Origin: a virus
Virus record (IMG/VR): IMGVR_UViG_3300045970_000591
Span: 59,383 to 123,382 of that record
Length of the DNA stretch: 64,000 bases
Direction: 5' to 3' (one strand)
Both the position numbers and the translations under genes were made by a program. The notes beneath the pieces were generated by a model, which did not search any database, was not told the origin of the DNA, and was given only the letters and a program-made list of their open reading frames with translations. This document shows positions 1 to 64,000 of this stretch, piece by piece. Numbering within the stretch: the first letter of the stretch is position 1; each line of letters starts with the position of its first letter.

Positions 1-41
1 TATTAGCCCTAGCCGGCAGAAAATAATTTAGGAGAAAAATA

Positions 42-1214: not shown

Positions 1215-1258
1215 TCAAAAAGGAAGTATTCAACTACTTCCTCGGATAATAAAAATAA

Positions 1259-1285
1259 GAAGCCTCACTTTGTGGGGCTTTTTCT
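1259..1285 (+). terminator. Intrinsic terminator after capsid gene
   Basis: aagcctcac-ttt-gtggggctt hairpin followed by T-tract. Confidence 0.75.
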
Positions 1286-1288
1286 TGA

Positions 1289-2791: not shown

Positions 2792-2840
2792 GAATCCTAA
2801 TATTTAAAATGAAGATAAATAAAGTAATCGGAGTTAATAA

Positions 2841-6735: not shown

Positions 6736-6854
6736 TTGGTAAAGCAGGAGCAACGGGATGTGGTGGCGGTGGTGGTGGTGGATGCCTTACCGGCGGTGTA
6801 GGTGGATCTGGTGGCCGCGGTGGCAACGGTATAGCAATATTGACTTCTTGGTAA
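6732..6854 (+). pseudogene. 40-aa glycine-rich ORF resembling an orphan C-terminus of a Gly-rich tail protein
   Basis: Manual translation MIGKAGATGCGGGGGGGCLTGGVGGSGGRGGNGIAILTSW; ATGA overlap with upstream stop. Confidence 0.4.
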
Positions 6855-6865
6855 TAAGGAAAAAT

Positions 6866-7486: not shown

Positions 7487-7922
7487 GGTGTTGGCTAAGT
7501 ATTTGATTAATCTTAGATACTGCTTTTTGATTACAGAAACTTATTTTAGCACCTTGGTGCATTGGTTTCGGCCAATCGCCTAAGTTTATCCAACAATACC
7601 CGCAGCTTTCGTGATTTAGTATAGGTATAAACTCTGATTTTACAACCGACACAAACGAATAATATTTGAAGTGTTTATCTCTGCTTTGGTAAGAGTCAAA
7701 CGGATATATTTTTTCTATATCAGGTATTTCTCCCATTTCTTCAGACAGTTCACGCAATAATGCTTCTTTAGGCTGTTCGCCTGATTCCATCATTCCGCCC
7801 CACAACGACCACTCCATTGCATGTGTCTTATGTGGTGCTCTTAGATTAAGTAATACGCGATTTGTTTCTGTGGAAATAAAAACTGTACCTACACCTATTT
7901 TATCTGTATCATTTGTATACAT
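7476..7922 (-). CDS. NUDIX hydrolase
   Basis: Nudix box GGMMESGEQPKEALLRELSEEMG. Confidence 0.9.
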   Translation of the reverse strand: MYTNDTDKIGVGTVFISTETNRVLLNLRAPHKTHAMEWSLWGGMMESGEQPKEALLRELSEEMGEIPDIEKIYPFDSYQSRDKHFKYYSFVSVVKSEFIPILNHESCGYCWINLGDWPKPMHQGAKISFCNQKAVSKINQILSQHPIV

Positions 7923-8210
7923 TTATAACCTGCTCTTCATGTCTTGTATTTTATTTAATATAGTGGCCGCTTTTTCTTTTAGTAGTCTAGTAGATTCATC
8001 ATCTGAAAAAGTCGCATCTATTATATTTTGTAAATTCTGTTCTGCATATTCTATAGTAGGTAACCATGTTTGCCGTCTAAATAAACTTTTAGTACCATAT
8101 AAAATCGTAAATATTCCTGATATCTTTTTGAATTCGGCGTCTATATCTAACTCAATACCCTTTATTTTAGCCCATATTTCGTCCTGCCCGTCGATTTCGT
8201 TTATTTTCAT
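7923..8210 (-). CDS. Hypothetical protein with MKINEI N-terminus
   Basis: ORF packed within the minus-strand operon. Confidence 0.55.
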   Translation of the reverse strand: MKINEIDGQDEIWAKIKGIELDIDAEFKKISGIFTILYGTKSLFRRQTWLPTIEYAEQNLQNIIDATFSDDESTRLLKEKAATILNKIQDMKSRL

Positions 8211-8211
8211 A

Positions 8212-8406
8212 TCAGCTCTTGATAGATAATAAAACTGATGTTACCTCGGGACTAACCGGTGAATTGCCTATTGTATTTTTCATATATATTAGCAACTGAT
8301 CTAGTTTATTATTTGTGAGTTTTATATCATTGCTGATGTTGTCCAGATGGTTTATTAAACTTACTTCCGTTTTTAATTCGTTTATTTTATTTTTCATATT
8401 AATCAT
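8212..8406 (-). CDS. Small hypothetical protein
   Basis: ORF coupled to flanking genes. Confidence 0.45.
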   Translation of the reverse strand: MINMKNKINELKTEVSLINHLDNISNDIKLTNNKLDQLLIYMKNTIGNSPVSPEVTSVLLSIKS

Positions 8407-9845
8407 TCGTAAACATCTATCGTGCCATCTGCTGTTTTTATAATATTATCGATGCGCCATTTTCCTGGGCCATACTCTCCATAGTATGTATAGGACCATA
8501 CCTTGTCTTTGAACATATATTGCACACCTGTGGTGTTATTTACCAGATATTGTGTGCCCGTAGAATTTCGTGAATCAAATATAACAACCCACTTTATTCC
8601 GTTATATTCTATAACATCATTTGGATATACTATCAACCCCACACCCCACGGACTTGTCGATACACCCGGTGGAATAGCAAGGCCATTAGTTGCAGCATTA
8701 GCAGATGTTATAAGATATCGCTGTCCTGCCACCGCTACAGGAAGGCCAGCACCCGGCATAACTTCAACAGGATCAATAATATCACTTATGGGTAAAATCG
8801 TTGTAGCAGGAAGTGAATCGACATCGGGTGTAAAAATAAGCACGTTTTTTCTATCTAAATCTTGTGTTATATCGCCTATAACGTCAGAATAGCTAATGTC
8901 TATGTTAGGGTCTATTTTTAGCCGGATTTTGGTTATATTAGTGCTTATTTGCCCGTATGCAGCAATGAGAGTCTGCCAGCTAAGTTCTGGTAAAACTGAT
9001 CCGTCTGCATTTATTAATGTAATCTCGTCCCTGTTATTATTTCTTTCTACACGTATTTTATAGTTGCCCTCTGTAGTAATAATCTGTGTAGGAACAGCAT
9101 TCATTGATGTTCTAAATGCATCGTAGTTCCCGTTCATACTTTCTTCAAGTCCGGTGATTTCTATATCACTAAACACATTTGTGACGATCTCAGCAACAAG
9201 CGTACTTCTTTTAACTTTTGCAGGAGGGTTTATCCATACAGGAACTTTAAATCTCCAACTCATTACATCACGTTCAATCTCTCCGCCTTGAGGAATAGAT
9301 CTATTTGTCCAGGTAGTATTATCCATCCATACTTCGAATATACTTGTCCAATCTAATAAGTTATTGTTTTGCTGTAGTTGAATAGATGGGTTAAAAATAG
9401 AATCTATTTGTTCTTTTATTTGAAACTTAGTTGTTGTGTTTGTTGTCCAGCAGTCTAACTTGAGTATCATTTCATACGGCACAGGCATGTATCTTTCTAC
9501 ATCATATCTTATGCCGGGTTGATTGGTGTATTGCCCTGTCATATGATCAACTGCTCTCTCCATAGTAGATACCTTTCCTACAAACTGAGAATCTTGCCTG
9601 CGGGTTGGATCCATATTTATTGCCTCTATATACGCACTAAACATAGGTGACGGCATTAGTGTATTTTCACTTACACCTTTGATGATTTGTGCAACCATAG
9701 ACGATGGATCGCCGTAAACTATAGGCACACGTTTGATTTCGTATGCACCATTTGCATCTGGTCCTGACTTATATTTTATATCAGAGAACATCCGTATAAA
9801 CTGTACCAGATAACGGCGGTACTGAGAATCATAGTGAAAATCCAT
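8403..9845 (-). CDS. Tail terminator / sheath stabiliser, T4 gp15-like, with C-terminal extension
   Basis: YDSQYRRYLVQFIRMFS...VPIVYGDP and VPYEMILKLDCWT...EQIDSIFNPS resemble gp15; adjacent to gp14-like gene. Confidence 0.7.
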   Translation of the reverse strand: MDFHYDSQYRRYLVQFIRMFSDIKYKSGPDANGAYEIKRVPIVYGDPSSMVAQIIKGVSENTLMPSPMFSAYIEAINMDPTRRQDSQFVGKVSTMERAVDHMTGQYTNQPGIRYDVERYMPVPYEMILKLDCWTTNTTTKFQIKEQIDSIFNPSIQLQQNNNLLDWTSIFEVWMDNTTWTNRSIPQGGEIERDVMSWRFKVPVWINPPAKVKRSTLVAEIVTNVFSDIEITGLEESMNGNYDAFRTSMNAVPTQIITTEGNYKIRVERNNNRDEITLINADGSVLPELSWQTLIAAYGQISTNITKIRLKIDPNIDISYSDVIGDITQDLDRKNVLIFTPDVDSLPATTILPISDIIDPVEVMPGAGLPVAVAGQRYLITSANAATNGLAIPPGVSTSPWGVGLIVYPNDVIEYNGIKWVVIFDSRNSTGTQYLVNNTTGVQYMFKDKVWSYTYYGEYGPGKWRIDNIIKTADGTIDVYE

Positions 9846-9849
9846 TGTA

Positions 9850-11064
9850 TTATCCTTTCTTTGCAGCTCTATCGTCTGCTATTTTAGCTCTTGCTGCTTC
9901 AGCGGCAGACACTTGTGTTTTTCTATCAGCGTATAGATCTACCTTCTGACGAACAACCTGCGACAGTGATTGTTTTTCGGGCATAACAGTGCCGTCTTGC
10001 AATATTGTATCTTTATTATTATCGATAAAAGAATCAAGTACTCTGTTGGTTGCAGTCCAGTGCTTCATAACATTTACTTCTATTAGTTTATATGTATTAC
10101 CTTGTTTTTGGAATAATCTCTCCGGTGTATAATCTAATCTTAAATAATAATCACCATCTTGCATAGTTAACGGAAATGATAACCCCGCACCCGCTAATGG
10201 TGCACCGTTGGGCGGCACACCATCACCGCTATAATAGTTACTACCTATCACGGGATATCCTTTATCATCTATGTATATGTAGAGATTAGCACTTTCGAAA
10301 AACTTAGGATCAAAAAATGCATTCTTTTCTGCTTCTGCAACTATGCCGTCTGTTATGCCGATTATTCTACAGAACAAATCTATTGAGTTTGTTATATTAG
10401 GATTTATACCTGTTCCTGGATTACCACTACTGTCAGCGGTATCTGTGAAACCGTCCGGCATAATGCCGATACCCTGTCCTATGCCGCCCGCAGTTTGTCC
10501 TGTTCCGGCCTGATCTATTATTTCTTTAAACTCCGGTCCTGCTGTCATAAGTTTCACCTTGGTTAGCCAAATATGTGGAAACCACTTTTGTCCATATCCC
10601 GCCGCAGCCCACATAGCATCCTGCACTACATAATATTTGTTTATCCCTACCGCGTTGTCGAATATAGGAACATCTCTCATGTTTGGAAACTCTAGCACAT
10701 CGCCCGGTATAAGTTTTCTACCTATCGCATCTATCATATCATTATAATGAAACTGCACTCGTATTGTATCTGAACTAAGAAATATACCAAACTGCGATAA
10801 ATCGTAGTTTATATCTTGTGGAGCATAATGCCCCCTCAACTCAATAACATCTGGGTTATATTTTCGTGCTGTATTTTCTAAGAATAATACATCTTGGATT
10901 GATGTAATGGTGGTATCAACATTACCGGTTGAGTCTATAGTCGGCCCTTCATATAGGTGTATAAGAATACCTGCTCCACCTATATTAAAGTTTTCTCCAA
11001 TCGCTCTATCTGTGAAGTTAAAATCTGCGCCCTTCGCCGCATTCCAGAGAGAAATTTTTGCCAT
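9850..11064 (-). CDS. Neck / head-completion protein, T4 gp14-like
   Basis: IQDVLFLENTARKY, LSQFGIFL..D and GRKLIPGDVLEFP motifs; GATAAATA on minus strand near 11085. Confidence 0.7.
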   Translation of the reverse strand: MAKISLWNAAKGADFNFTDRAIGENFNIGGAGILIHLYEGPTIDSTGNVDTTITSIQDVLFLENTARKYNPDVIELRGHYAPQDINYDLSQFGIFLSSDTIRVQFHYNDMIDAIGRKLIPGDVLEFPNMRDVPIFDNAVGINKYYVVQDAMWAAAGYGQKWFPHIWLTKVKLMTAGPEFKEIIDQAGTGQTAGGIGQGIGIMPDGFTDTADSSGNPGTGINPNITNSIDLFCRIIGITDGIVAEAEKNAFFDPKFFESANLYIYIDDKGYPVIGSNYYSGDGVPPNGAPLAGAGLSFPLTMQDGDYYLRLDYTPERLFQKQGNTYKLIEVNVMKHWTATNRVLDSFIDNNKDTILQDGTVMPEKQSLSQVVRQKVDLYADRKTQVSAAEAARAKIADDRAAKKG

Positions 11065-11155
11065 CTTGTGTCCTCATTTTAACTATTTATCATAAAACTA
11101 ATATGAAAGAAAATGTCATCTATGATAAATATAGGTGTATTGAGGAATAATAAAA

Positions 11156-13315
11156 ATGTCACAAAAATATCCGCGAGTTGCCCCTGGTGTAACAATAATA
11201 ATGGATGAGGCATCAAATGGTGTATCATCAAGGCTGACCGCAGATCCGCTGCTAACTTTACCAGCAGATCCGGGCGTAAGTGGTTACAGCGGATTTAGTG
11301 GTTATAGTGGCGCCGATGGGATAACGGGTATAAGTGGTTATAGTGGCACAAATGGCACCAACGGTACAATAGGTGTAGATGGTGTGAGTGGCTATAGTGG
11401 TGTAAGTGGATATAGTGGCCTGCAAGGTTTGCAAGGCATAAGTGGGTATAGTGGATGGTCAGGCGCAAATGGTGCTGGGTCGGTTATGTCTGTAGGTATA
11501 AGTGGCTATAGTGGTATCACTGCAGGTAATACTCCTATAACAACTTCAGGCATAATGACGGTTACATTAGATAATACCGCTGTTACTCCGGGATCATACA
11601 CAAATACTAATCTCACAGTTGATGCACAAGGTAGAATAACTGCTGCTGCAGACGGAACAGGTGGTGGTATAGGATTAGATGCATATAACAGTTTAGGTAT
11701 AGGCAGCGTCGGCACTTTAGCAACCTCAACCGGGTTGAATAATCTTGCTATCGGCATTGCCACGTTATGTAACAACACCACCGGCTGTAATAATACAGCA
11801 ATAGGCTATGGTGCTCTTTGCACAAACATTACAGGAAAAGATAACCTCGCCCAAGGTTATCAAGCACTATATGCTAATACATACGGTAACGATAATGCTG
11901 CTATAGGTCATCGTGCGCTTTATTGCAACACAACAGGCATTAATAACACTGCAATCGGTAACAGAGCGCTTTATGGGAATTTCACAGGTATCAATAATAT
12001 TGCCATAGGTGCAGATTCGCTGGTTTTATCCGCACCAGAATCGGGTTGCGCAACAGTAAATAATAATATAGCACAAGGTTACAGTAGTTTACGCAATCTC
12101 ACCTCAGGTTCAAATAACATAGCGATAGGCCAGTGCGCAGGTGCAAGTGTATCGTACGGATCTGATAATACCATATTAGGCTCGTTGATAGCAGGAAACT
12201 GTGTTTGCACTGTGTTGATTGGCGCCGGAACATGCGAGCGTATCAAGGTTGATAATACAGGCCTGTATATAAATGGCACAGCTTTTACTGGTGGTGCACC
12301 ATCACTGACTGCCACGTATAACAACTTAGGAATCGGTACAGGTGCCCTTGCCAATCCGGCGATATATGGCCGCAATAACTTTGCCGTGGGTATTGGCGCG
12401 CTCTGCAAAGATACAGGTGGTAACCATAACTTCGCCCAAGGATATCATGCACTACAAAACAATCTCTATGCGAGTAATAACTTCGCCCAAGGCTACAATG
12501 CGCTAGGCAGCAACACATATGGTAGCCATAACTTCGCCCAAGGCTATCGCGCACTATGTAAAAACATTAACGGTAGTAGTAATATAGCAATGGGATTCAA
12601 TGCACTCACGAGCAACACCGCCGCCTGTAATAACACCGCGATAGGAGCATATGCACTCTTTACTAATACCACCGGTAGTAATAACATTGCAATAGGATCT
12701 AATGTACTCCGGAGTAATATTGCCGGTATTAATAACATCGCCATGGGAGATCATGCGCTTTACGGTAATACTACTGGCAATAATAATATTGCTCAAGGAT
12801 ATCAGGCGCTCTTCAGCAATACTACCGGTACCGATAATATAGGAATTGGTTGCTGTGCCGGATACAGTAATATAGGGGGGTCCAATAATACGTTCCTAGG
12901 ATACAATGCCCAAGGGAGCACCTCTACTTCTTCTAACACCATAACACTAGGCAATGCATCAATCGCGACCATTCGTGCTCAAGTAACAACTATTACAGCA
13001 CTATCTGACGCACGTGATAAAACTGACATTGTCGATATTCCACTCGGCCTCGATTTTATCAATCAGATACGCCCAGTGAAGTTTACATGGAATATGCGTG
13101 ATGGAAGTAAAGTAGGTCAAGGCTATGCTGGTTTCATTGCACAAGAACTAAAACAAGTAATGGATTATCATCAAGTCAAAGATTGGTTGGATCTCGTTCT
13201 TGAAGATAATCCCGATCGATACGAAGCCGCACCGGGTAAACTACTGCCTATCATTGTTAAAGCGATCCAGGAACTAAATGCCAAGTTTGAAGCATATAAA
13301 CTAACGCACCCATAA
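11156..13315 (+). CDS. Tail fibre/spike with 14-aa repeats and C-terminal S74 intramolecular chaperone
   Basis: NN(T/F)A(I/Q)GY.AL..NT.G repeats; LSDARDK...LGLDFINQIRPVKFTW...GFIAQE. Confidence 0.85.
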   Translation: MSQKYPRVAPGVTIIMDEASNGVSSRLTADPLLTLPADPGVSGYSGFSGYSGADGITGISGYSGTNGTNGTIGVDGVSGYSGVSGYSGLQGLQGISGYSGWSGANGAGSVMSVGISGYSGITAGNTPITTSGIMTVTLDNTAVTPGSYTNTNLTVDAQGRITAAADGTGGGIGLDAYNSLGIGSVGTLATSTGLNNLAIGIATLCNNTTGCNNTAIGYGALCTNITGKDNLAQGYQALYANTYGNDNAAIGHRALYCNTTGINNTAIGNRALYGNFTGINNIAIGADSLVLSAPESGCATVNNNIAQGYSSLRNLTSGSNNIAIGQCAGASVSYGSDNTILGSLIAGNCVCTVLIGAGTCERIKVDNTGLYINGTAFTGGAPSLTATYNNLGIGTGALANPAIYGRNNFAVGIGALCKDTGGNHNFAQGYHALQNNLYASNNFAQGYNALGSNTYGSHNFAQGYRALCKNINGSSNIAMGFNALTSNTAACNNTAIGAYALFTNTTGSNNIAIGSNVLRSNIAGINNIAMGDHALYGNTTGNNNIAQGYQALFSNTTGTDNIGIGCCAGYSNIGGSNNTFLGYNAQGSTSTSSNTITLGNASIATIRAQVTTITALSDARDKTDIVDIPLGLDFINQIRPVKFTWNMRDGSKVGQGYAGFIAQELKQVMDYHQVKDWLDLVLEDNPDRYEAAPGKLLPIIVKAIQELNAKFEAYKLTHP

Positions 13316-13372
13316 TCAATAATAGTATCTGCAATACCTGTTCCTAAGTAAATACTACTTTAAGGGACAAGT

Positions 13373-14224
13373 ATGACTAAGATTTTAATAATGGGCCTCC
13401 CCGGCTCCGGAAAAACATTTCTCGCCCAAGCACTAAAACATTATCTGATAGAGAACGGCACTGCAAATAACATGTCGTTACCTAACGCGATGCTTACTGA
13501 TTTACAGTTTGGTGATTATAAAATATCTGTAGATTGGTTCAACGCCGACGAAATAAGAAAACGATTCAATGACTGGGATTTTAGTCACGATGGTAGAATC
13601 CGCCAATCATTAAGAATGGCAGAGTTTGCATTAAAGTCTGCTGGTGATTTTGTTATCGCTGACTTTGTTGCACCACTTGTAGAGATGCGTAACAACTTCA
13701 AAGCAGATTGGACTATTTGGATGGACACTATTGACCAAGGCCGCTTCGCTGATACAAACAAGGCATTTATTCCTCCGGAACAGTATGATTTCCGTATAAC
13801 TGAAAAGGATGCAGAGAAATGGGCAGAGTTTGTAGGTTCGCATATTTTAGAAAATCGTCGCCGACCTGTCTTTGATTGGAAGAAAGAGACAGTGCAGATG
13901 TTAGGCCGTTGGCAACCTTTTCACGAAGGTCATCGCGCCCTGTTTGATAGACTTATTCAGAAAACTGGACAAGTTGTTATTCAAATAAGAGATTGTCAGG
14001 GCTGGCAAGGATCTAATCCGTTCGCTATTAAACAAGTAGAAGGATTTATCCGTCGCGATTTAGATCCTTTATATCAGGGGCAATATGAGATTCAGGTGGT
14101 GCCTAATATTGTGCATATCGGCTGGGGTAGAGGTGTAGGATATACAATGGCAGAGGAATCTTTTGTTGATAGTATAACTGATATTTCGGCCACTAAAATC
14201 CGTAAAGAACTGGGGTTAAAATAA
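13373..14224 (+). CDS. Adenylylsulfate-kinase-like domain fused to HIGH-family nucleotidyltransferase
   Basis: GLPGSGKT P-loop with NADEIR...WDFS..GRIRQ (CysC-like); C-terminal LGRWQPFHEGH. Confidence 0.75.
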   Translation: MTKILIMGLPGSGKTFLAQALKHYLIENGTANNMSLPNAMLTDLQFGDYKISVDWFNADEIRKRFNDWDFSHDGRIRQSLRMAEFALKSAGDFVIADFVAPLVEMRNNFKADWTIWMDTIDQGRFADTNKAFIPPEQYDFRITEKDAEKWAEFVGSHILENRRRPVFDWKKETVQMLGRWQPFHEGHRALFDRLIQKTGQVVIQIRDCQGWQGSNPFAIKQVEGFIRRDLDPLYQGQYEIQVVPNIVHIGWGRGVGYTMAEESFVDSITDISATKIRKELGLK

Positions 14225-14268
14225 CATAGTGCTATTTTAGTGATAAATACTATAATAAGGAACCTATT

Positions 14269-15216
14269 ATGAAAACAAAAACACCTGTAGAAAAATCCGC
14301 AAAGATACCTAAGCCAGCAACTGTAGCACCAAGAATCATACCGTTATCGGACTTACAACCATCGCCACCGGATATACGAGATCATATAGCAGCATTACCT
14401 CGTGTAACCTTGCCTACATCTGTTGATCTTAAGCCATTAGTGAATGAAGTAGAAAATCAAAGCATATTCAACTCTTGCACTGCTAACGCAGGTTGTTCCG
14501 CATTAGAACTTATGTATCACGGAAATAATACCATAGTTGATTTGAGTAGATTCTATCTATATTACTACACACGTCAACTAAGCGGTATTACAGGTGACAA
14601 AGGTGCGTATGCAAGAGATATCGGCAAAGCACTTAAGGCGTATGGTGTGTGTACTGAAAATAACTGGGCATATGTTCAGGAGAACCTAGATAAGGCGCCC
14701 ACGCCGGCAGTAATCCAAGAAGCAAACAAGTTTAAGATTTTATCTTATGAACAGCTTGTTGGTGACAAGTTACTTGAGATTAAGAATGCAGTTGCTCAGG
14801 GTGTTCCTGTATTGCTTACAATGGCAGTGCATAATGGTTTCTATGGTTTAACAGGCAACTGGAAAACACATTCGTGGGATTATACTGATAACTCTAAAAA
14901 TCCAGTAGTAGGTTGGCACGAAGTATTGATTATTGGGTACGACGATGCAGCTCAAAGATTGTTGGTAGAAAATTCTTGGGGACCTGAGTGGGGAGATGGT
15001 GGCTTCTTTGGCATATCTTATGGTATGTTGACATCAGCAGCAATCGGTGAACTGTGGGTTTTATCACCTAACTATTCATTGGGTAACGATGTTATTCCGG
15101 ATCCATTACCGGATCCATTACCTACTCCACCTACTAATAAATCGTGGATAGTTATTGCATTGATTGCACTTGCTATTATTATTTTCACAACTACAGGTAT
15201 GTTTCCGACTCCATAG
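14269..15216 (+). CDS. Papain-like cysteine peptidase (C1A) with C-terminal membrane anchor
   Basis: NQSIFNSCTANA, WHEVLIIGYDD, NSWGPEWGDGG; Pro-rich linker then hydrophobic helix. Confidence 0.9.
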   Translation: MKTKTPVEKSAKIPKPATVAPRIIPLSDLQPSPPDIRDHIAALPRVTLPTSVDLKPLVNEVENQSIFNSCTANAGCSALELMYHGNNTIVDLSRFYLYYYTRQLSGITGDKGAYARDIGKALKAYGVCTENNWAYVQENLDKAPTPAVIQEANKFKILSYEQLVGDKLLEIKNAVAQGVPVLLTMAVHNGFYGLTGNWKTHSWDYTDNSKNPVVGWHEVLIIGYDDAAQRLLVENSWGPEWGDGGFFGISYGMLTSAAIGELWVLSPNYSLGNDVIPDPLPDPLPTPPTNKSWIVIALIALAIIIFTTTGMFPTP

Positions 15217-15304
15217 GGTTTTATTATCTATTGATAAATAGTAATAGAATTCTAATGACTATTACATAATGTAATAGACGAGTTTCGACTCGAACAAGGG
15301 AACT

Positions 15305-18300
15305 ATGTCAGTTACAATCAATGCTAAAGGTACCAGTGTACCCTATTTTACTATAGGTAAAGGCGGCGCCACGATATATCAAGGCGTTGCAGATCCCTCC
15401 CTTTCATACACAATCAACACAGGCGATTATTGGCTTGATACTGTCACCTTGGCTCAAAAAGTGTGGAATGGTTCTGCTTGGGTTATGCCTCTTGGAACAA
15501 GTGGCTATAGCGGTGTAAGTGGCTACAGTGGTTTCAGTGGTGTAAGTGGCTACAGTGGTTTCAGTGGTGTAAGTGGAACAAGTGGCTACAGTGGTTTTAG
15601 TGGTTTCAGTGGCGTAAGTGGAACAAGTGGCGTAAGTGGCTATAGTGGTTTCAGTGGAACATCTGGTGTAAGTGGCTACAGTGGATTTAGTGGAACATCT
15701 GGCTATAGTGGTTTCAGTGGTTTCAGTGGGTTCAGTGGTGTAAGTGGCTACAGTGGAACATCTGGCTACAGTGGAAAGTCAGGGTATAGTGGGTTCAGTG
15801 GAACAAGTGGCTACAGTGGCTTTAGTGGTGTAAGTGGCTACAGCGGTTATAGTGGTGCAGGATCAGTATTAGGCGCCGATATTCAACGCTGCGGTTTCTT
15901 AAATCAGACAGAGACTACAATCGCATTTGACGGTACCAATACATTTACGTTAGGTGATGCAGGCGCCGGGTGGTCGTATTATCTCAACGGGTTAAAATAT
16001 ACAATATCCGGTAGCAAAACAATAACACTAACTGGTGCACCTCCCGCTGCAAAAGCAGTTTATTTTATTAGTATTTCAAATAACACAACAGGTACATTAA
16101 GTGTTTCGACTACCGCCTGGGATTTAACTGACCCACTTACTATACCTGTCGTAACCGTAAACTGGGATAGCACCCTTACGCCTACGTACTGGTTAGCAGA
16201 TGAGCGCCACTCGACAAAGATTGACCGTAGAATGCATTACTATTTGCATACTACTCACGGAACCCAAGTAAGAACATACGGTGGCGTAGCAGGATATACC
16301 GTAGCACCCGCTGTCCCTGCAAATATAGATAATACTTTTTCTATCGGTGCAACCATATTAGAAGATGAAGATATTATTTTAAGTCTTGCAGCATTAACAG
16401 ATCCGGGCGGCGTCACTACTGATTATGTAAACCTATACAGGACTGCTGCAACAACATATGCTTGGGCTGCATCTGCACTACCATATCCTTCATCTGCAAC
16501 ATATATTCAATATGATAATGCCGGCACACTAACAACAGGTATCAATAATAGATGGTATAACTCGTATCTATTATTTACGGATTACAGCGGCGCTGGCCGA
16601 TTTGTTATGATACCGGGTCGCGCACAGTTTACATCGTTAGCAAACGCTCAGTTAGAAGATCCATCACAGTTTGATTGGACAGGGTTAGGCATTGCCGAGT
16701 TTGTTATAGCATATCAGTTTACATGGAATAGTGGTGCGGCATATACAACAACCGGTAAAGTTAGATTAGCAGCAATACCGGTCAAGGTTAATATAGCAAC
16801 ATTAGCAGCAACTACAATAACATCGGCTGCACATAATAGCTTAACAGGGTTACAAGGCGGCATACCGACAGAATATTTCCACTTAACCGCTGCCGAATAT
16901 GCAGCACTTCAACTAACTGGTGGATCGGGGTTTAGCGGGTATAGTGGGATAAGTGGTTATAGCGGAGTGTCAGGATACAGCGGGGTCGGCACATCTGGTG
17001 TAAGTGGCTACAGTGGAACAAGTGGCACATCTGGCTACAGTGGAACATCTGGTGTAAGTGGCTACAGTGGTTTCAGTGGAACATCTGGTGTAAGTGGCTA
17101 CAGTGGTTTCAGTGGAACATCTGGTGTAAGTGGCTACAGTGGATTTAGTGGAACAAGTGGCACATCTGGCTACAGTGGAACATCTGGTGTAAGTGGCTAC
17201 AGTGGAACATCTGGTGTAAGTGGCTACAGTGGTTTCAGTGGAACATCTGGTGTAAGTGGCTACAGTGGATTTAGTGGAACAAGTGGCTATAGCGGGTTCA
17301 GCGGCGTTTCTGGCTATAGCGGGTTCAGTGGGTTTAGTGGCACAAGCGGGTTCAGCGGCGTTTCTGGCTATAGCGGGTTCAGTGGGTTTAGTGGAACATC
17401 TGGCTATAGCGGTTTCAGTGGAACAAGTGGCTACAGCGGTAAATCAGGTTTCAGTGGCTATAGTGGTACACCTCTATCTTGGGTTGAGATAACAAGTAAT
17501 ACAACTGCGGTGAGTTTAGTACAGTATATATGCGATACAACTGCTGCACCATTCACCCTAACATTACCGCTATCTCCTACTACGGGCAATATGGTAACTG
17601 TAATGGACGGTGGTTCTTTTGCAGTCAATAATCTAACGGTAGCAAGAAACGGAAGCACTATAGAAGGCCTTGCTGAAGATTTTGTTATTAATATATCTTC
17701 GGTGATAGTTTATTTTGTATATGATGGCGTCACCTGGCAAATGGCTGCAACAGTCGGCCCAGCAGGAACAAGCGGATATAGCGGATACGGTGGCGTAGAT
17801 GGTACAAGTGGGTTCAGTGGATCAAACGGTACCATAGGTGTAGATGGAACAAGCGGCTATAGTGGGTTCAGTGGTTACAGTGGAACATCTGGTTATAGCG
17901 GAACATCTGGTTATAGCGGCTCACCTGGCCCGTCAAATATAATAAATGCTACAGATGATGTCGCCACAACATTATTATACCCGGTTATGGTTGCCGCAGC
18001 AGGCTCACCACAAACTGCTAAAGTATCTACTCCAAAAATATCATTTGACGCATCGACTGGTGTATTTTCCGCTGTTTCGAAATCTTTCTTGATAGATCAT
18101 CCTACCAAACCTGGTATGCAGCTACGATATGGTTGTTTAGAAGGCGAAGAATATGGCGTATATTTGCGCGGAAGATTAACTGATTGTAATGAGATTATGT
18201 TGCCGGAATACTGGACAAAACTAATAGATCCCCAATCTATAACAGTGCAACTAACGCAGATAGGCATTAGTAAACAAGATTTATATGTTGATTCAATAGA

Positions 18301-18403
18301 ACACAATATAGTTAAGATAGGTGGCACAAACATAAACTGTTTCTATGTTATATTTGCCGAAAGAAGTGATATACCCAAAATAATAGTAGAGGATAGTAAA
18401 TGA
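15305..18403 (+). CDS. Long collagen-like (Gly-X-Ser)n fibre protein
   Basis: Two long SGYSG tracts; module shared with 2841..5186; C-terminal KSFLIDHPTKPGMQLRYGCLEG domain typical of phage fibres. Confidence 0.8.
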   Translation: MSVTINAKGTSVPYFTIGKGGATIYQGVADPSLSYTINTGDYWLDTVTLAQKVWNGSAWVMPLGTSGYSGVSGYSGFSGVSGYSGFSGVSGTSGYSGFSGFSGVSGTSGVSGYSGFSGTSGVSGYSGFSGTSGYSGFSGFSGFSGVSGYSGTSGYSGKSGYSGFSGTSGYSGFSGVSGYSGYSGAGSVLGADIQRCGFLNQTETTIAFDGTNTFTLGDAGAGWSYYLNGLKYTISGSKTITLTGAPPAAKAVYFISISNNTTGTLSVSTTAWDLTDPLTIPVVTVNWDSTLTPTYWLADERHSTKIDRRMHYYLHTTHGTQVRTYGGVAGYTVAPAVPANIDNTFSIGATILEDEDIILSLAALTDPGGVTTDYVNLYRTAATTYAWAASALPYPSSATYIQYDNAGTLTTGINNRWYNSYLLFTDYSGAGRFVMIPGRAQFTSLANAQLEDPSQFDWTGLGIAEFVIAYQFTWNSGAAYTTTGKVRLAAIPVKVNIATLAATTITSAAHNSLTGLQGGIPTEYFHLTAAEYAALQLTGGSGFSGYSGISGYSGVSGYSGVGTSGVSGYSGTSGTSGYSGTSGVSGYSGFSGTSGVSGYSGFSGTSGVSGYSGFSGTSGTSGYSGTSGVSGYSGTSGVSGYSGFSGTSGVSGYSGFSGTSGYSGFSGVSGYSGFSGFSGTSGFSGVSGYSGFSGFSGTSGYSGFSGTSGYSGKSGFSGYSGTPLSWVEITSNTTAVSLVQYICDTTAAPFTLTLPLSPTTGNMVTVMDGGSFAVNNLTVARNGSTIEGLAEDFVINISSVIVYFVYDGVTWQMAATVGPAGTSGYSGYGGVDGTSGFSGSNGTIGVDGTSGYSGFSGYSGTSGYSGTSGYSGSPGPSNIINATDDVATTLLYPVMVAAAGSPQTAKVSTPKISFDASTGVFSAVSKSFLIDHPTKPGMQLRYGCLEGEEYGVYLRGRLTDCNEIMLPEYWTKLIDPQSITVQLTQIGISKQDLYVDSIEHNIVKIGGTNINCFYVIFAERSDIPKIIVEDSK

Positions 18404-19104
18404 GTATCTCTTACAATCCGAGTATAGTAACTAATGGGCTTGTGCTGTGTCTTGACGCAGCTAATACGAAAAGTTATCCTGGCAGTGGAACTATCTGGAG
18501 TGATCTTAGCGGGTTCGGCAATAATGGCACACTCTATAACACCCCTGTGTATAGTAGTGGAAGTTTAGCATTTAATGGCACTACACAATATTGTTTATGT
18601 GGAAATGCAATCCAGGTTAGTGGTAGTTTACCCTGGTCTGTTGTTGGTTGGTTTAAAAGAACATCAGCATATGCAGGAAAAGCATCGTGGGGATTTGGAA
18701 CTGCCAACGCCAACTTTAATACCTTCAATAATGCTTCGGCCAATGAGATATCTATAGATTTATATGGTGTTGCTACATTCAGCAGCGGGCAAATATATGA
18801 TCTTAACTCATGGAACTTCGCCGCATGGACATTTAGTGGGGGCGTATTTAACCGAGCAAATATTAAGATTTGGAAAAATACCACATCTTACACCGGCCCT
18901 ACTCTAAATATATTACGGGGAGCAGAAACCACAACACCCAACATAAACGCAGCAGGCGGATTTTTAGTAGGTAGAGTTAGCGCAGCAGACAATGCATACT
19001 ATGCGCCGGTTACAGTTTCACATATCAGCTTTTACAACCGTGCCATTACTGCGGCTGAAGTTGCACAAAACTTTAACGCTACAAAATCGAGGTATGGGCT
19101 ATGA
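18400..19104 (+). CDS. LamG / concanavalin-A-like lectin domain protein
   Basis: IVTNGLVLCLDAANTKSYPGSGT.WSDLSG...FYNRAITAAEVAQNFNA. Confidence 0.85.
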   Translation: MSISYNPSIVTNGLVLCLDAANTKSYPGSGTIWSDLSGFGNNGTLYNTPVYSSGSLAFNGTTQYCLCGNAIQVSGSLPWSVVGWFKRTSAYAGKASWGFGTANANFNTFNNASANEISIDLYGVATFSSGQIYDLNSWNFAAWTFSGGVFNRANIKIWKNTTSYTGPTLNILRGAETTTPNINAAGGFLVGRVSAADNAYYAPVTVSHISFYNRAITAAEVAQNFNATKSRYGL

Positions 19105-19793
19105 GCTTAGGTCACGGAGCATCAATCGTTACTAACGGACTGGTATTGTGTCTTGATGCTGCCAACACAAAGAGCTATCCTGGCAGTGGAACTACCTGGA
19201 GCGATTTATCCGGATTTAATAATACAGGGACATTGGTTAATGGAGCAACTTATTCGTCTGCTAACAACGGTAGTATTGCATTTGATGGAACATCAGGTTA
19301 TATCAACTGTGGCTCGGCACCCGTTATTGGCTCGTCATTAACTGGCCTTACAGTCGAGGTGTGGTTATATTCTACCGCTAGAACAACTAAATGTATAGCA
19401 GAAAACGGCTCAGCGCACAATGCAAACACATTTTATATGTTTCAAGAGAACGTTGTTAACTTTTCATTTGAGGTGTGGGGCGGCACAACATATGATGCAT
19501 TATACTCAAACTTCACATATCAACTAAACACATGGTATCATTTAGTCGGTACATGGTCGTCTGGCAACAGGGTGAAAATGTATAGTAACGGTGTAGAAAG
19601 TGGCGCCGCCCCGTTCGGTTCAGTGCAAACTGCGGTTGCAAACGGTAATACAAATCTAATGATTGGTGCCAGGGCAGGCACCGGCTCCTGGTGGTCGGGT
19701 AACATACCTACCGCACGATTTTACAACCGCGCTCTATCAGCCTATGAGGTAAGACAGAATTTCAACGCAGCAAGGTCACGTTATGGCCTATGA
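19101..19793 (+). CDS. LamG / concanavalin-A-like lectin domain protein (tandem paralog)
   Basis: Same termini as the preceding gene; WYHLVGTW and FYNRALSAYEVRQNFNA. Confidence 0.85.
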   Translation: MSLGHGASIVTNGLVLCLDAANTKSYPGSGTTWSDLSGFNNTGTLVNGATYSSANNGSIAFDGTSGYINCGSAPVIGSSLTGLTVEVWLYSTARTTKCIAENGSAHNANTFYMFQENVVNFSFEVWGGTTYDALYSNFTYQLNTWYHLVGTWSSGNRVKMYSNGVESGAAPFGSVQTAVANGNTNLMIGARAGTGSWWSGNIPTARFYNRALSAYEVRQNFNAARSRYGL

Positions 19794-19814
19794 TAAATAT
19801 AAAATAAGGTAAAA

Positions 19815-20180
19815 ATGGCATCATATATAGGTCTTAGTCCGGCATTAGTAGCAATCAGAACAGATGCAGAAGCAGCTCGCGATACTGCGGTAGCCGCCGC
19901 TACAGGACAATATAACAATGTAGTAAGGAACATAACAGTATCTGACAGTATAGTAATGACAGATAGTATTATTTTTGCATCAAACACTATCACATTGACT
20001 ATGCCCACAGCAGTTGGCATTAGTGGTAGAACATTTACTGTAAAGAATAAAGGTGTAGGGATGATAACTTTAACTGGTGTAAATGCAGAAACCATTGACA
20101 GTTATTCAACAATGACACTAAGTGAACCAAATACATCTATAGATATTATATCTGATGGAAGTAACTGGTATATTTTATAA
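19815..20180 (+). CDS. Small fibre-associated structural protein
   Basis: TITLTMPTAVG..GRTFTVKNKG...ISDGSNWYIL module, related to a segment of 23377..25467; GATAAATA upstream. Confidence 0.55.
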   Translation: MASYIGLSPALVAIRTDAEAARDTAVAAATGQYNNVVRNITVSDSIVMTDSIIFASNTITLTMPTAVGISGRTFTVKNKGVGMITLTGVNAETIDSYSTMTLSEPNTSIDIISDGSNWYIL

Positions 20181-58879: not shown

Positions 58880-59725
58880 TAAGGGGGTTTAGTCTCCTGT
58901 GATAGGTATGGTTCGCCCAGCTTGTTGCGAAGGATAAGCATCGTAAGGTGCCCAAGGGCGGAATGTCTACATACCGTCTCCAGTAATGGTCCATACTAAG
59001 CAAGCCTGCTCAATGCCGCAAGGCATCCTTATCGGATAACACCGGGTGAGGTAACATTGAAGTAAGTGTCAAGGAAAGAATGACTGCTCAAGCGCCGAAA
59101 GGTAACGCAAGCAGTTGAAAAGTAACAGGTGGTGCTGACTTCTTGACAAACCAACTTATTAGATGGTATGAGAAAGGGTAGTGTATTTGTCCGAGCCGTC
59201 GCAAGCAAGGGCTTATATGCAGTTTGAATGGTTTATGGCACCTGTCAAAGGGTGACATCGATCGTGAAAGACGACTTAGTAGCCCGCAAGCGAAAAGTAC
59301 GTGATGTGTTGTATTATGTATCTAACAAGGTATGTATCAACTGAAGTAGCACATCGCAGTAGATTGGCTTAACCGCCGCTCATATGGTTATTTGAACAAA
59401 AGCAAAGACTACTTCGGTGATATTTGAAAGACATCTAATACTTGGGCCGCAAGGTAACTAAGTCTGTTAAAGCTCGCAAGGTAATAACAGTTTATGATAG
59501 AAAGTTCGGAACGGTTTAGCGACTGTGTACTGCTCGCAAGGCAGACGGGAAAGAAATCATAGAGTAGAGTATCACGTCAAGTCTACTGCCTGACTTTAAA
59601 AGGCGATGTTGTTGGTAGACTAGGTTACCGCAAGGGGCTTAGTGGATGTCGTAAGAAGGTTTACTCGCAAGGTATACTGATAATGTACGAAGTATCAACG
59701 CAAAGATTGTAATCTCAGATCTTTG
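58880..59725 (+). ncRNA. GOLLD-like giant structured RNA (boundaries approximate)
   Basis: About 850 nt with no ORF; many cGCAAg/GAAA tetraloop hairpins; 3' caaagattgtaatctcagatctttg; embedded in tRNA array. Confidence 0.65.
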
Positions 59726-59851
59726 ATATAAGAAAGCATATTATGACGAGGGTAGGCAATATAGTCTAGAATGTATAGGTGATGCGTCTTAATAAGAATC
59801 GGACTCTTAGTAGTGTGCTTCCTTATATCCTCGGAGTATAGAACATTATGT

Positions 59852-59926
59852 CGGAAATTCGCCTAGTCTGGCATGGCACTCCGTTTGGGGCGGAGAATAA
59901 CACTAGTTCGAATCTAGTATTTCCGA
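59852..59926 (+). tRNA. tRNA-Pro(TGG), CCA not encoded
   Basis: ctccg-tttgggg-cggag; cggaaat/atttccg acceptor. Confidence 0.85.
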
Positions 59927-60721
59927 CATAATGCTTTGTTTTATATAATCTAAATTCCCGTATATTATGGGTATTAATTTTTCTACACAAGACATCTTAT
60001 ATTTTTCTAGTGTCATTGCTGTAGGATTTTTCGGGTCTAAATACAAGTTAATAGCGGGTAGATAAAAGTATGGATAATATAATCGTTCTTTTATTTTAAT
60101 TTCGTCATACCACTTTATGTATGTTGGCCTCATCCATTTAATATCTTTACTATCTAACCATTGGGCCATATCTAGTTCCCACGATGATTCTAATAATACA
60201 GTTATGTTTTGGTGTTTATTAAAATAATAGAATATTTTTCTTCTACCATTTTTATAAGGTCTATTTCCTACTTTTAAATGAGTAATACATTCTGATTTAC
60301 CGCAAGACTTTTTGGATGTTTTCCATCCTTTGGTATAATATAATGCATCACATACAGGGCAAGTATTCCATAGAATTTTACAGAACTGCCCCGACATAGT
60401 TTTAGGCGAATATGTTCTTGGTGCTTTTGGTTTTCCTATTAAGGATTTACTTGTTATTGCCCGTGATTCTGCAGTCCGCGGCATTCTTCTTGTATTATTA
60501 TAAGTAGCCGAACACGATTTACAACAGAATTTATTTTTCCTAGATGCATATACAAGCGGTGTTTTACATTGGGCACAATAACAAGGCTCGATATTATAAT
60601 CATTAATTCTTTTTTGTTTATTAACTTGTGCTTGTTCCGTGGCCTTGCATCTTGCTAAAATAACATTAGCTACATGTTTTCCAGATTTATAGTATTCTGA
60701 ATCTTTCATATTGTTTTTCAT
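59903..60721 (-). CDS. PD-(D/E)XK (TnsA-like) homing endonuclease; ends antisense in tRNA-Pro
   Basis: FCCKSCSATYNN; ESSWELDMAQWLD...YYPYFYL...YLDPKNP; paralog of 55642..56343. Confidence 0.72.
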   Translation of the reverse strand: MKNNMKDSEYYKSGKHVANVILARCKATEQAQVNKQKRINDYNIEPCYCAQCKTPLVYASRKNKFCCKSCSATYNNTRRMPRTAESRAITSKSLIGKPKAPRTYSPKTMSGQFCKILWNTCPVCDALYYTKGWKTSKKSCGKSECITHLKVGNRPYKNGRRKIFYYFNKHQNITVLLESSWELDMAQWLDSKDIKWMRPTYIKWYDEIKIKERLYYPYFYLPAINLYLDPKNPTAMTLEKYKMSCVEKLIPIIYGNLDYIKQSIMSEILDSN

Positions 60722-60776
60722 ATATGTATTTAGTCTGGAAAGATGTTTTCGAACCTTAAATATGATATCATAATAT

Positions 60777-60850
60777 CTGCGTATAATTCAATGGAAGAAT
60801 ATTCGACTTTTAATCGAACTACCAGGGATCGTTACCCTGTGCGCGGACCA
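60777..60850 (+). tRNA. tRNA-Lys(TTT)
   Basis: ttcga-cttttaa-tcgaa, ACCA. Confidence 0.88.
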
Positions 60851-60900
60851 TATAACACACGGTTAGTAGACAAATACACAGTTAATTTATATAATACATT

Positions 60901-61454
60901 ACCATATTTAAATACACTGTCCCACAAAAGGGCAAAGGTCAGAGGAACTGATCATCCTCGCGCTTCGGCAACCAACAGTGTGTTTTAATATGGTACGTGA
61001 GGTATGCAGGACGTCAAAGTGTATATCCTAAGACATAGACAAAATATTGCGGCCGTGATATTCGACTAGTTTTAGGTTAACTCATGTACCGCCATATTAA
61101 AATACATTAAACGGGAATATACTTGGCGCGACTATTCTTAAACAGCCAAGCGCACGACCGCTACCGCATAGTGTATTTTAATATGATATCCATTTCAGAG
61201 TGTTGACCGGTTTATTCTGCAATGCTTTGATTTATAGTTGTTCGCAATCGAGGGGATTTCGCAGAACGAAAGTTTAAGAGCGTTTAGTACTGAAATTTGC
61301 CAGCTAGATGGTCCTACCATATTAAAAAGCACTGTGGCACTGTGGTAACGAGCCTTCTTAGCGGTTGGCGTTATGGGTTATTCGGTGCTAATCCCAGCGG
61401 TTAGGGGTATAAGTTGCAACTTCCGGTTCGAATCCGACAGTGCTTTTTAATATG
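60901..61454 (+). ncRNA. Run of stem-enclosed small structured RNAs
   Basis: 15-20 bp inverted repeats at 60901/60994, 61093/61185 and 61318/61454; 10-bp stem plus GCCA at 60992..61094. Confidence 0.55.
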
Positions 61455-61459
61455 ATAAA

Positions 61460-61484
61460 CGCCCGCTTCGGCGGGTATTTTTTT
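61460..61484 (+). terminator. Intrinsic terminator closing the RNA array
   Basis: cccgc-ttcg-gcggg plus long T-tract. Confidence 0.85.
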
Positions 61485-61498
61485 GAGTAAAATCCCTA

Positions 61499-61506
61499 GA
61501 TAAATA
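61499..61506 (+). promoter_or_regulatory. T4-type late promoter motif in front of the beta-barrel gene
   Basis: GATAAATA, 4 nt before ATG 61511; the same motif precedes many genes in this window. Confidence 0.65.
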
Positions 61507-61507
61507 G

Positions 61508-63511
61508 TTGATGCTATGGCGTATCCTAATCCTCTTCCTCTTCGCAACTGCGTCATACGCACAGGATAACACCATCAAGGCCATTTCCGGCATGCCATCC
61601 TCGAACGTAGAGATGATCAAGATTGAAATGGTAAGCCCGATACACCAAACACCAGATAGTTTCGACATAACCACACCACCGACGCTGGTGATGGATTTTG
61701 AAGATGTGACAACCGTTGCCCCGCGAAGCGTATCAATCAACCAAGGCAATGTGCGCTCTGTATCTGTGGTCCAATCGGACACCCGAACAAGGGTAATCAT
61801 AAACCTATTCCGTCACACTGATTACAGACTGATGCTCCGTGGCAACTCACTAATGGTAGTGCTTGACAATCCGTTTGAAACAGCAACACCAATGGATACG
61901 CGCCCACCTAAAGAACTACTGGCAGTGGCAAAGAAAGTCCTTGCTGAAGGTAAAGATCCGCAGGAAGCTATTGATGCCCTAAACGCCCTGTTGATGTTGC
62001 CACCAGACGCAACTGCCCAAGAGGCACAAGAGTTGATTGCTGTGGCATACGAGAAGGCTGGTAACCCGGCGAAGGCAATGGCAGAGTTACGCGCATACAT
62101 TGCGATGTATCCAAATAGCAGGAACATAACAAGCCTACGACAGCACCTGATTGCGATGGAGATTGCCACACCACCAGTTCATCTACAAGGGCTGGCAGCA
62201 CGAAAACCGCGCACCGGCAAAGAGAGCAAGGTAGATACAAGCATAACGGAATACTACTACTCAAGCGGAGACCAAGCAGCGCTCATCTCAAATGTCCGAA
62301 CATCAGCAATGTTCCGTGACGACGAGTTCACCACTAAGCTACAATACAGACATTCAACCTATTCAACCATAACAGGAACAGCGCAAAACCGCAACCTGAT
62401 ATCCGTGGCATTCGCCGATTGGGAGAACACATATCGAGGGTACGGGTTCAGAGTAGGTAGACAACAGCCGGCAGATGGTGCCATTGGACGCTACGACGGT
62501 GTGTCCGGAAGGTATGCCGTGAGCGAAGCCTCAACAGTCAAGGTGCTCTTTGGCATTCCATACACCGGAGACAACACTGCTAAACGCCGCTTCTACAGTC
62601 TGGCCTACAGCTACTTCAACGGAACGCCGTGGTCCTTTGACGCATACTACGATCATCAAACAGCAGACTCCCTACCAGAACGACAGGCCCTGGGCCTTAC
62701 TGCCCGCTACTTCAAGAACGACATCTCAGCCACTGCCATAGTGGAATACGACTTCCTATATAGAGTGCTGAACACAACGATGTTCCAAAGCAACATGAAG
62801 TTTGGGGATTACGGCATTTACATACTGGCAGACCGCAGGAAGTCCCCGGTGCTATTTGCCAACAGGGCGCTACTTATCGGCCTAAGCGGTGCCAATCACC
62901 AAGCATACGACACAGTGGCGGAGGTGCTGGAAAAGTCCGGCCTGTCCCATCAGTCAATTTACCAGTTCATCAACGAAACTACGCCGTATAGCTCTGTGTA
63001 TGTCCTGGGTGTCAATAAACAGATAACACCTAAGTGGAACCTAAGCGTAGATGCCCAGTTCTCCAACACCACTGCCAGCACCGATCCTGAGTTCATTCCA
63101 AGCATTGACATGCCGGTGTCCTTAGTGGCGCAGCAAGGTTCAGGTAGAATGATGACGCTAAACGCTCAACTCTACGGTCAGAATGTCCGTGAGAAGGGCA
63201 ACTCAATAAACGCCTTGGTTAGTCTGACTAAAGGTGCGGAGTCAAGCGGTTACACCCTGACCTTCCTTGACTCAACGCCATACAAAGGATTGCGCTTTGA
63301 CACTATGATGATGTATTCCAAGCACCATACGGCGTGGAACAGCACTGGCAACCTCACTGCGTCACTCAAAGTGAACTACAAGATAAACGAGCGTTCAACC
63401 TTTGAGGCGCAAGTGTCGCTAACTAAAACAAACACGCAAGATCAGCAGAACGAAATCTCATCAAGCGCATTTTCACAAACGGTATTTTTAGGTTGGAGGA
63501 TTGACTTTTGA
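61508..63511 (+). CDS. Outer-membrane beta-barrel protein with signal peptide, AMIN-like and TPR domains (putative porin of a porin-cytochrome complex)
   Basis: Signal peptide ending ASYA; PPTLVMDF...VSVVQSDTRTRVIINL (AMIN-like); TPR helices; amphipathic strands ending FLGWRIDF (C-terminal Phe beta-signal); likely start ATG 61511. Confidence 0.75.
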   Translation: MMLWRILILFLFATASYAQDNTIKAISGMPSSNVEMIKIEMVSPIHQTPDSFDITTPPTLVMDFEDVTTVAPRSVSINQGNVRSVSVVQSDTRTRVIINLFRHTDYRLMLRGNSLMVVLDNPFETATPMDTRPPKELLAVAKKVLAEGKDPQEAIDALNALLMLPPDATAQEAQELIAVAYEKAGNPAKAMAELRAYIAMYPNSRNITSLRQHLIAMEIATPPVHLQGLAARKPRTGKESKVDTSITEYYYSSGDQAALISNVRTSAMFRDDEFTTKLQYRHSTYSTITGTAQNRNLISVAFADWENTYRGYGFRVGRQQPADGAIGRYDGVSGRYAVSEASTVKVLFGIPYTGDNTAKRRFYSLAYSYFNGTPWSFDAYYDHQTADSLPERQALGLTARYFKNDISATAIVEYDFLYRVLNTTMFQSNMKFGDYGIYILADRRKSPVLFANRALLIGLSGANHQAYDTVAEVLEKSGLSHQSIYQFINETTPYSSVYVLGVNKQITPKWNLSVDAQFSNTTASTDPEFIPSIDMPVSLVAQQGSGRMMTLNAQLYGQNVREKGNSINALVSLTKGAESSGYTLTFLDSTPYKGLRFDTMMMYSKHHTAWNSTGNLTASLKVNYKINERSTFEAQVSLTKTNTQDQQNEISSSAFSQTVFLGWRIDF

Positions 63512-64000
63512 AAACATTACTATTTTTATTGGCACTGGTGTGCTTTGACGCCCAAGCGGCGGAATGTACCCTATACGAGCAGTCCCATCCGGCGTTTCTA
63601 CTCAGTGGCTCACACCTATCTACTGGTAAGTGCGGCACCTGCGCCAGCTGCCATATCAACAGTGTGTTCACCGGAACACCTACTTCCTGCGTTCAGTGCC
63701 ACAACGGTGATCCATCACGACTAACGGTCGGAAGATCAGCTAAACACATTCCTACCGCCCTACTTGAGTGTAGCTACTGTCACACCACATTGACATTCAC
63801 TGTGGCAACGATGAATCATGTCCCTGTCACTGCCTCAGGAACTAAATGTATAACCTGTCACCTAACAGGAACATCATGGATTGGTAATATGGAGAAAATG
63901 TCCCTTACTCATCAACAAAGAAGCCCTGTCCCTACTGATTGCTCAATGGCAGGATGTCACCGTCCACTTGGAAACAGAGGAACTCTATACCGAAATTGGG
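63508..64000 (+). CDS. Secreted multiheme cytochrome c, open at window edge; not in ORF track
   Basis: TTG start overlapping the porin stop, SD GGAGGA; signal peptide MKTLLFLLALVCFDAQA; CASCH, CVQCH, CSYCH, CITCH and CSMAGCH; spaced His ligand candidates. Confidence 0.88.
   Translation, partial: MKTLLFLLALVCFDAQAAECTLYEQSHPAFLLSGSHLSTGKCGTCASCHINSVFTGTPTSCVQCHNGDPSRLTVGRSAKHIPTALLECSYCHTTLTFTVATMNHVPVTASGTKCITCHLTGTSWIGNMEKMSLTHQQRSPVPTDCSMAGCHRPLGNRGTLYRNW

Follow-up and report, generated by a model that had tools for sequence, protein, structure and literature searches.

The locus and its viral genome

The window (i.e. the whole 64-kb stretch of DNA that was analysed) is the terminal part of a linear virus record of 123,382 bp with a completeness of about 36%. 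Towards its 3′ end, an array of tRNA and other RNA genes is closed by an intrinsic terminator, beyond which lie a putative late promoter, a porin gene and the gene of a secreted multiheme cytochrome c (cytA) that reaches the last nucleotide of the contig:

61461..61484, + strand: intrinsic terminator (stem at 61461-61476, then a T run) of the upstream tRNA/ncRNA array
61499..61506, + strand: GATAAATA, candidate late promoter of gp55 type, 4 nt ahead of the porin ATG
61511..63511, + strand: porin ORF of the PCC3 family, 666 aa, with signal peptide, AMIN and TPR domains and a beta-barrel of about 22 strands
63495..63500, + strand: Shine-Dalgarno sequence GGAGGA for cytA, within the 3′ end of the porin gene, 7 nt upstream of the TTG start
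63508..64000, + strand: cytA, secreted pentaheme cytochrome c, 164 codons, four CxxCH motifs and one Cx4CH motif

The terminator, which the original prediction had placed at the end of the RNA array, is seen as described; it is also the left edge of a cassette common to sister phages, being near-identical in L001 and L010. The translational coupling proposed for the two genes was found as well, the porin stop codon TGA (63509-63511) overlapping the TTG start of cytA (63508) in the sequence TTGA at 63508-63511, and all five heme motifs read in cytA are in place. As close relatives are 165 aa long, cytA loses only its last codon and the stop codon at the contig end. Circular closure of the record was ruled out: there is no terminal repeat, and the cytA frame does not resume at the contig start. 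The view of the locus as a porin-cytochrome pair stands as far as both genes are present, but they are the first two genes of a bigger module, in which a gene for a 7-heme cytochrome (cytB) follows in the window's relatives, past the point where the window's contig ends. Finally, the higher GC content noticed by eye is borne out by the porin gene, the GC (0.50) and GC3 (0.555) of which are the highest among all ORFs of at least 200 aa (typical GC3 about 0.32).

The contig that carries the module also encodes a capsid protein (gp23-type), portal (gp20), protease (gp21) and late sigma factor (gp55), all of T4 type, and the source virus is assigned to the T4-like jumbo phages. The window holds 23 tRNAs and one GOLLD RNA, with the following further features:

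59301-59721, + strand: GOLLD RNA, full length, 187.7 bits
54844-55050, + strand: RNA polymerase omega subunit (rpoZ), recurring near the module, also in L004 and L009
49391-50077, + strand: shortened response regulator (225-230 aa), conserved in several module-bearing phages (L002:6703-7380, L096:5719-6411)
56513-58363, + strand: ribonucleotide reductase with a weak match to the B12-dependent (class II) insertion domain
59903-60721, 55642-56343 and 52227-52688, − strand: low-GC, Cys-rich endonuclease-like ORFs, antisense insertions within the tRNA array

A ribonucleotide reductase resembling class II, as this weak match suggests, would suit replication at low oxygen. Longer homologues of the response regulator (about 290 aa, one named from Polaromonas) share 42-59% identity with it, and the endonuclease-like ORF at 59903 is missing from the corresponding place in sister L011. 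Phages of the CBB/GAP32 type are like the window in their gp55-like sigma factor, ATAAATA late motif and T4-type capsid, portal and protease, but differ from it in that neither the porin nor cytB has a match in any GenBank phage of the INPHARED set searched. No match was returned either when plasmids were searched with a bacterial porin homologue.

Phage late control of the porin was part of the original prediction, which noted that other genes share the spacing of its upstream motif. Indeed, GATAAATA-N4-start occurs six times in the genome versus 0.6 expected, and this excess, along with the gp55 sigma factor gene, points to a probable late promoter. ATAAATA has been proposed as the late promoter of CBB/GAP32 (PMC5259590). 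Ten loci were compared for the core TAAATA: eight have it just ahead of the porin (0.3 expected) and all ten have it 27-44 nt ahead of cytB (1.1 expected), these being counts from related, hence not independent, loci. Late control of porin and cytB is thus plausible, and, given the 4-nt spacing and the lack of a Shine-Dalgarno sequence, the porin message is probably leaderless.

The porin, its cytochromes and their predicted complex

The domain architecture initially read from the porin sequence is reproduced by domain matches (AMIN, 37-116; TPR, 142-211) and by an AF2 model (pLDDT 90), with 22 strands across residues 237-665 and a helical extracellular loop at 445-492; the signal peptides of porin and cytochrome were assigned by eye only. 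Against solved structures, the barrel gives generic outer-membrane barrel matches, MtrB being just one of these (TM 0.27). FyuA aligns over 372 residues (Z 18.4, rmsd 4.7); a TonB-dependent transporter was considered and rejected, for although the barrel size agrees, there are AMIN and TPR domains at the N-terminus and no plug. Sequence searches of solved structures gave only TPR/BamD-type and weak heme-motif matches, and the ESM Atlas gave unnamed clusters along with a PEP-CTERM outer-membrane-protein label, which is a lead only.

The structure prediction of the complex proposed at the outset was carried out with porin residues 132-666 and mature cytA carrying four hemes, and cytA was placed in the barrel with a score of 0.82 (best of three controls, 0.00). 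Of 80 solved complexes, 58 reach the mark applied to this score, as do 2 of 110 mismatched pairs (figures only roughly valid here), and the score may mirror likeness to the solved MtrAB arrangement. At least 74% of the contacts agree between runs, with a partner pLDDT of at least 67. The contacts, long loops included, alternate on 17 of the 22 strands, as lumen-facing residues would, and involve cytA residues 22-123, most densely 22-85. CytA is modelled as a plug inside the barrel lumen.

Five histidines outside the heme motifs of cytA are candidate distal ligands, a number sufficient for bis-His hemes. Cys20 and Cys42, which lie outside the heme motifs, are invariant throughout phage cytA and cytB and probably form a disulfide. 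Heme motifs are preserved across the phage cytochromes, with a maximum of 7 hemes per protein in all phage loci. Since the stretch of densest contacts (cytA 22-85) is almost invariant between cytA and cytB, the two probably plug the barrel as alternatives and differ at their outer ends, with a Cx4CH heme in cytA and an amphipathic helix in cytB. Some lineages (L142, L144 and L147) keep only porin and cytB, with or without the inner-membrane protein described below, which makes cytB the constant partner and cytA optional.

Relation to PCC3 and to other conduits

The porin-cytochrome c cluster PCC3 was defined by He et al. in 2017 (PMC5566968) and is present in the Gallionellaceae pangenome (PMC10734462); it has been a prediction since 2017, its function being experimentally unverified (bioRxiv 2025.02.27.639646). 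Its heme numbers are large (median 34 for the extracellular and 21 for the periplasmic cytochrome) and its inner-membrane protein is characterized by SGxxG and two WX3HX13H motifs (PMC5566968). At E<1e-30, a profile search gave 1,204 clusters. Eighty named bacterial loci, ranked by similarity to P0047, the sister of the phage porins, were inspected; in nearly all, the porin homologue adjoins multiheme cytochrome genes, and, where the contig is long enough, the order is: inner-membrane protein, 21/24/27-heme cytochrome, 9-84-heme cytochrome and, last, the porin. The original prediction would not have held for a barrel unrelated to porin-cytochrome porins; the homologues of this one, modelled with 22 strands, sit in PCC3-type clusters, as expected of a PCC3-family outer-membrane porin. 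Among the bacterial loci, three Burkholderiales MAGs (L035, L036, L039) have the PCC3 porin gene divided in two (N-terminal part, 152 aa; TPR and barrel, 583 aa), an arrangement reminiscent of the short porins in phages L002 and L004, and in Nitrospira MAGs (L033, L037, L051, L077, L085) the inner-membrane and periplasmic genes are divergent from those of extracellular cytochrome and porin.

The cytochromes, too, have their counterpart in PCC3. For both cytA and cytB, the best match is the cytochrome encoded next to the porin (E 1e-20 to 1e-29), the N-terminal module of which they share, and cytA retains the Cx4CH C-terminus of the extracellular PCC3 cytochrome, from which, by these sequence matches, both phage proteins derive. 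In PCC3 the cytochromes carry about 10-85 hemes, whereas the phage proteins have 5 and 7, with the gene of extracellular type duplicated. Furthermore, PCC3 has a periplasmic cytochrome of 21-27 hemes that is absent from every phage locus, including a 328-kb relative, 92% complete, in which only two multiheme ORFs are found. The porin gene is last in the PCC3 cluster but first, with late-promoter motifs, in the phage module.

The fourth component is represented in several phages by a small inner-membrane protein of 134-156 aa with SGxxG and both WX3HX13H motifs (L002, L096, G006) and by homologues in G011 and L142, as compared with a PCC3 protein of about 300 aa and five transmembrane segments that is clustered with the other three. 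Its gene adjoins the module in L002, L096 and L142, is some 66 kb off in G006, and was not found in the window's own contig (genome 36% complete). In L116 (843-1878) and L115 (1003-2050), an unlinked inner-membrane gene is preceded by one for a secreted protein of 193-197 aa with no PHROG match, which by eye resembles a small outer-membrane barrel.

Because the periplasmic cytochrome and the PCC3 heme numbers are lacking, the module is classed, on sequence grounds, as a reduced derivative of PCC3 and not as a full member. Of the PCC3 and MtoAB systems with which a comparison was initially proposed, likeness to the former is upheld by the homology of porin and cytochromes to parts of the PCC3 cluster, while no MtrA- or MtrB-type sequence match was obtained. 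In the test for the MtrA/DmsE family, cytA, with 5 hemes and not a decaheme protein, scored 12.8 bits with TIGR03508 (cut-off, 192.2), and in that for the MtrB/PioB family the phage porin had no Pfam or NCBIfam match, so that membership of MtrAB/MtoAB/PioAB is ruled out by sequence. What the module shares with these systems is translational coupling and a cytochrome inside a barrel (here modelled); it differs from them in having a pentaheme instead of a decaheme cytochrome, AMIN and TPR domains in the porin, and a barrel of about 22 strands as compared with the 26 of MtrB.

Recurrence and movement among phages

With the module at the contig end and a step in GC, an assembly chimera or a flank of host DNA had to be considered. 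Such an artefact can be practically dismissed. Porins 85-98% identical to that of the window are present in independent JGI assemblies: in L010 and L011, an RNA array 92-97% identical to the window's is followed by porin, cytA, cytB and spanin-like genes, and L001 likewise has the upstream region in common with the window, so that in these independent assemblies the porin follows the same array and the module is succeeded by phage genes, the two points on which the original prediction was to be checked. Moreover, more distant porin copies (30-41%) are embedded in tRNA arrays (L002, L004, L008, L014, L096, L097) or elsewhere among phage genes, mid-genome, in contigs of 106-330 kb, while the bacterial homologues that were found are only remotely similar (about 31% at most), their genes being in the opposite order. 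The 328-kb relative, with 70% identity to the window in the major capsid protein, also carries the module mid-genome, and the gene of the small inner-membrane protein elsewhere.

Overall, more than 20 distinct phage-type loci, near-duplicates being taken once, have porin and cytB, usually cytA and often the inner-membrane protein, with tRNA arrays, spanins, rpoZ and structural genes as recurrent flanks; a limited BLAST test showed bacterial housekeeping context at none of them. In the viral contigs, porin queries (single-protein and alignment) gave no match, and it was with cytochrome queries that the loci were recovered. In sequencing run X1, one unitig covers 52000-61538 with zero differences, although X1 may be the source sample and is not counted as independent. 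The same run holds a second cassette variant that diverges upstream of 61462, and the existence of this variant with another flank is probably why the assembly broke at the contig end.

The module is kept under strong purifying selection, with dN/dS of 0.04-0.16 for porin, cytA and cytB (porin, 0.05-0.11; cytA, 0.04-0.09). A 112-kb phage (L015) has only a truncated porin (AMIN and TPR, with a cytB-like tail at the end), apparently a deleted copy of the module, which implies that the module is dispensable. Immediately ahead of this truncated gene are two hemerythrin-like genes (L015:8566-10103), the second Pfam-confirmed, and a further hemerythrin is found at L096:19033-19398.

The window's porin is nearer to the copy in L009 (dS 0.29), the flanks of which have a GC of 0.49 and cannot be aligned to the window's, than to that of the sister phage L010 (dS 0.40), and in more distant phages the module matches the GC of its own genome. 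Given both observations, the GC step most likely records a recent exchange of the cassette among phages, instead of recent capture from a bacterium.

Origin and host

The phage porins form one clade (100% support) that attaches among porins of Methylophilaceae (Novimethylophilus, Methylotenera, Methylophilus), in a tree that is unrooted, with a long phage stem and bacterial sampling tilted toward the sister sequence P0047. Methylophilaceae of lakes often have putative genes for extracellular electron transfer (EET) (bioRxiv 2022.03.26.485925). The Gallionellaceae donor named in the original prediction is not borne out by the porin, since a tree constrained to unite the phage sequences with seven Gallionella porins is worse by 73.6 log-likelihood units and is rejected (AU p=1.2e-8). 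The C-terminus of cytA, on the other hand, best matches extracellular cytochromes of Gallionella (41%, E 1e-24), and the parts of the module may therefore differ in origin. As for the host, no spacer-like match to positions 1-20000 of the window was found among 201 genomes of the Novimethylophilus family, the response regulator gave generic matches only in five candidate genomes, and the phage rpoZ is equally far from Gallionellaceae and Methylophilaceae (46-49%).

These data bear on the proposal that the module was taken from, and is used in, a Gallionellaceae host as an aid to Fe(II) oxidation, a special case of electron exchange across the envelope. It would draw on the cytA match just mentioned, on PCC3 being common in Gallionellaceae (PMC10734462) and on the fact that the donor lineage can differ from the present host, but has to contend with the rejected porin tree, the equidistant rpoZ and the finding that PCC3 carriers are mostly not known metal oxidisers (PMC5566968). 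We regard this proposal as rather unlikely.

Proposed function

In our opinion, the module probably lets the infected cell exchange electrons across its envelope. A PCC3 cluster would have been captured once, long ago, by a phage, reduced, and then passed among jumbo phages. The TAAATA promoters would drive porin and cytA and, separately, cytB late in infection, and the Sec, Ccm and BAM machineries of the host, as is known for these protein families, would export the proteins, attach the hemes and insert the barrel, respectively. The N-terminal module common to cytA and cytB would plug the barrel, with the later hemes pointing outward (as modelled for cytA and presumed for cytB), to give a short heme wire through the outer membrane. 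Because the periplasm-spanning cytochrome of 21-27 hemes is missing, this wire would be incomplete without host parts; periplasmic carriers of the host, or its own PCC3 periplasmic cytochrome, may bridge it to the inner membrane, where the small phage protein, a putative di-heme b-type cytochrome, would provide the connection to the quinone pool. During the long infection by a jumbo phage in oxygen-poor pond and wetland water, the benefit would lie in additional exchange of electrons with iron or humic acceptors or donors outside the cell, disposal of electrons being slightly favoured over uptake.

Phage proteins that mask receptors are known in general, and the module could instead remodel the cell surface, its short versions displacing a host PCC3 extracellular cytochrome or porin that serves as a receptor, i.e. 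excluding superinfection, with hemes retained merely for the fold. Such a role would agree with the late expression motifs, with two cytochromes that are shortened forms of an exposed extracellular protein and share one barrel-binding module, and with a cassette that moves among phages. It leaves unexplained, however, why the phages have a complete porin, and an inner-membrane protein in which four heme-b histidines are conserved, and diversifying selection would be expected in place of the very low dN/dS; we consider it unlikely.

The shortness of the wire with respect to the periplasm (5 and 7 versus 21-27 hemes) also raises the question of whether the hemes rather store electrons or report the redox state outside, helping to time lysis, as an envelope buffer or sensor. 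Hemerythrins, a peroxiredoxin-like ORF and the conserved response regulator near the module in several phages, and the spanins that follow it in two lineages, are in line with this idea. Nevertheless, the neighbours differ among loci, within what is a variable tRNA island, and barrel, plug cytochrome and putative quinone-active protein are the parts of a conduit, which makes a buffer or sensor quite improbable. Returning to electron exchange, we would give roughly even chances to its strongest form, namely that a widespread freshwater jumbo-phage clade installs a working conduit made of a porin, two interchangeable heme plugs and a minimal quinone-linked membrane protein, which would be the smallest working PCC3.

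Implications

The original prediction knew of no such conduit in a phage, and a literature search, with thin coverage of subscription journals, likewise found no paper on a phage porin-cytochrome module. Multiheme cytochromes are reportedly carried by Borgs and jumbo extrachromosomal elements. The amoC-phages carry a NapC/NirT cytochrome and OprP (bioRxiv 10.64898/2026.06.18.733297); they resemble the present case in that redox and envelope genes of the host are found on a mobile element, but in their case the cytochrome is a separate protein of the inner membrane and the porin one for phosphate, with no porin-cytochrome conduit described.

Expression, structure determination and reconstitution are within reach for proteins as small as the natural 5- and 7-heme versions and the 22-strand porin, which make the PCC3 prediction testable, while PCC3 cytochromes of 20-85 hemes are likely to be difficult to express. 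The compact module could also supply parts for engineered bioelectronics, and surveys of EET genes in metagenomes may be scoring phage genes as bacterial. If the proposed function is correct, infection would switch on or raise electron exchange with extracellular iron or humic matter, a class of viral auxiliary metabolism for which no paper was found, and a module working as modelled would make phages direct participants in extracellular electron transfer, so that infection would be tied to the cycling of iron, humic matter and C1 compounds in ponds, wetlands and lakes.
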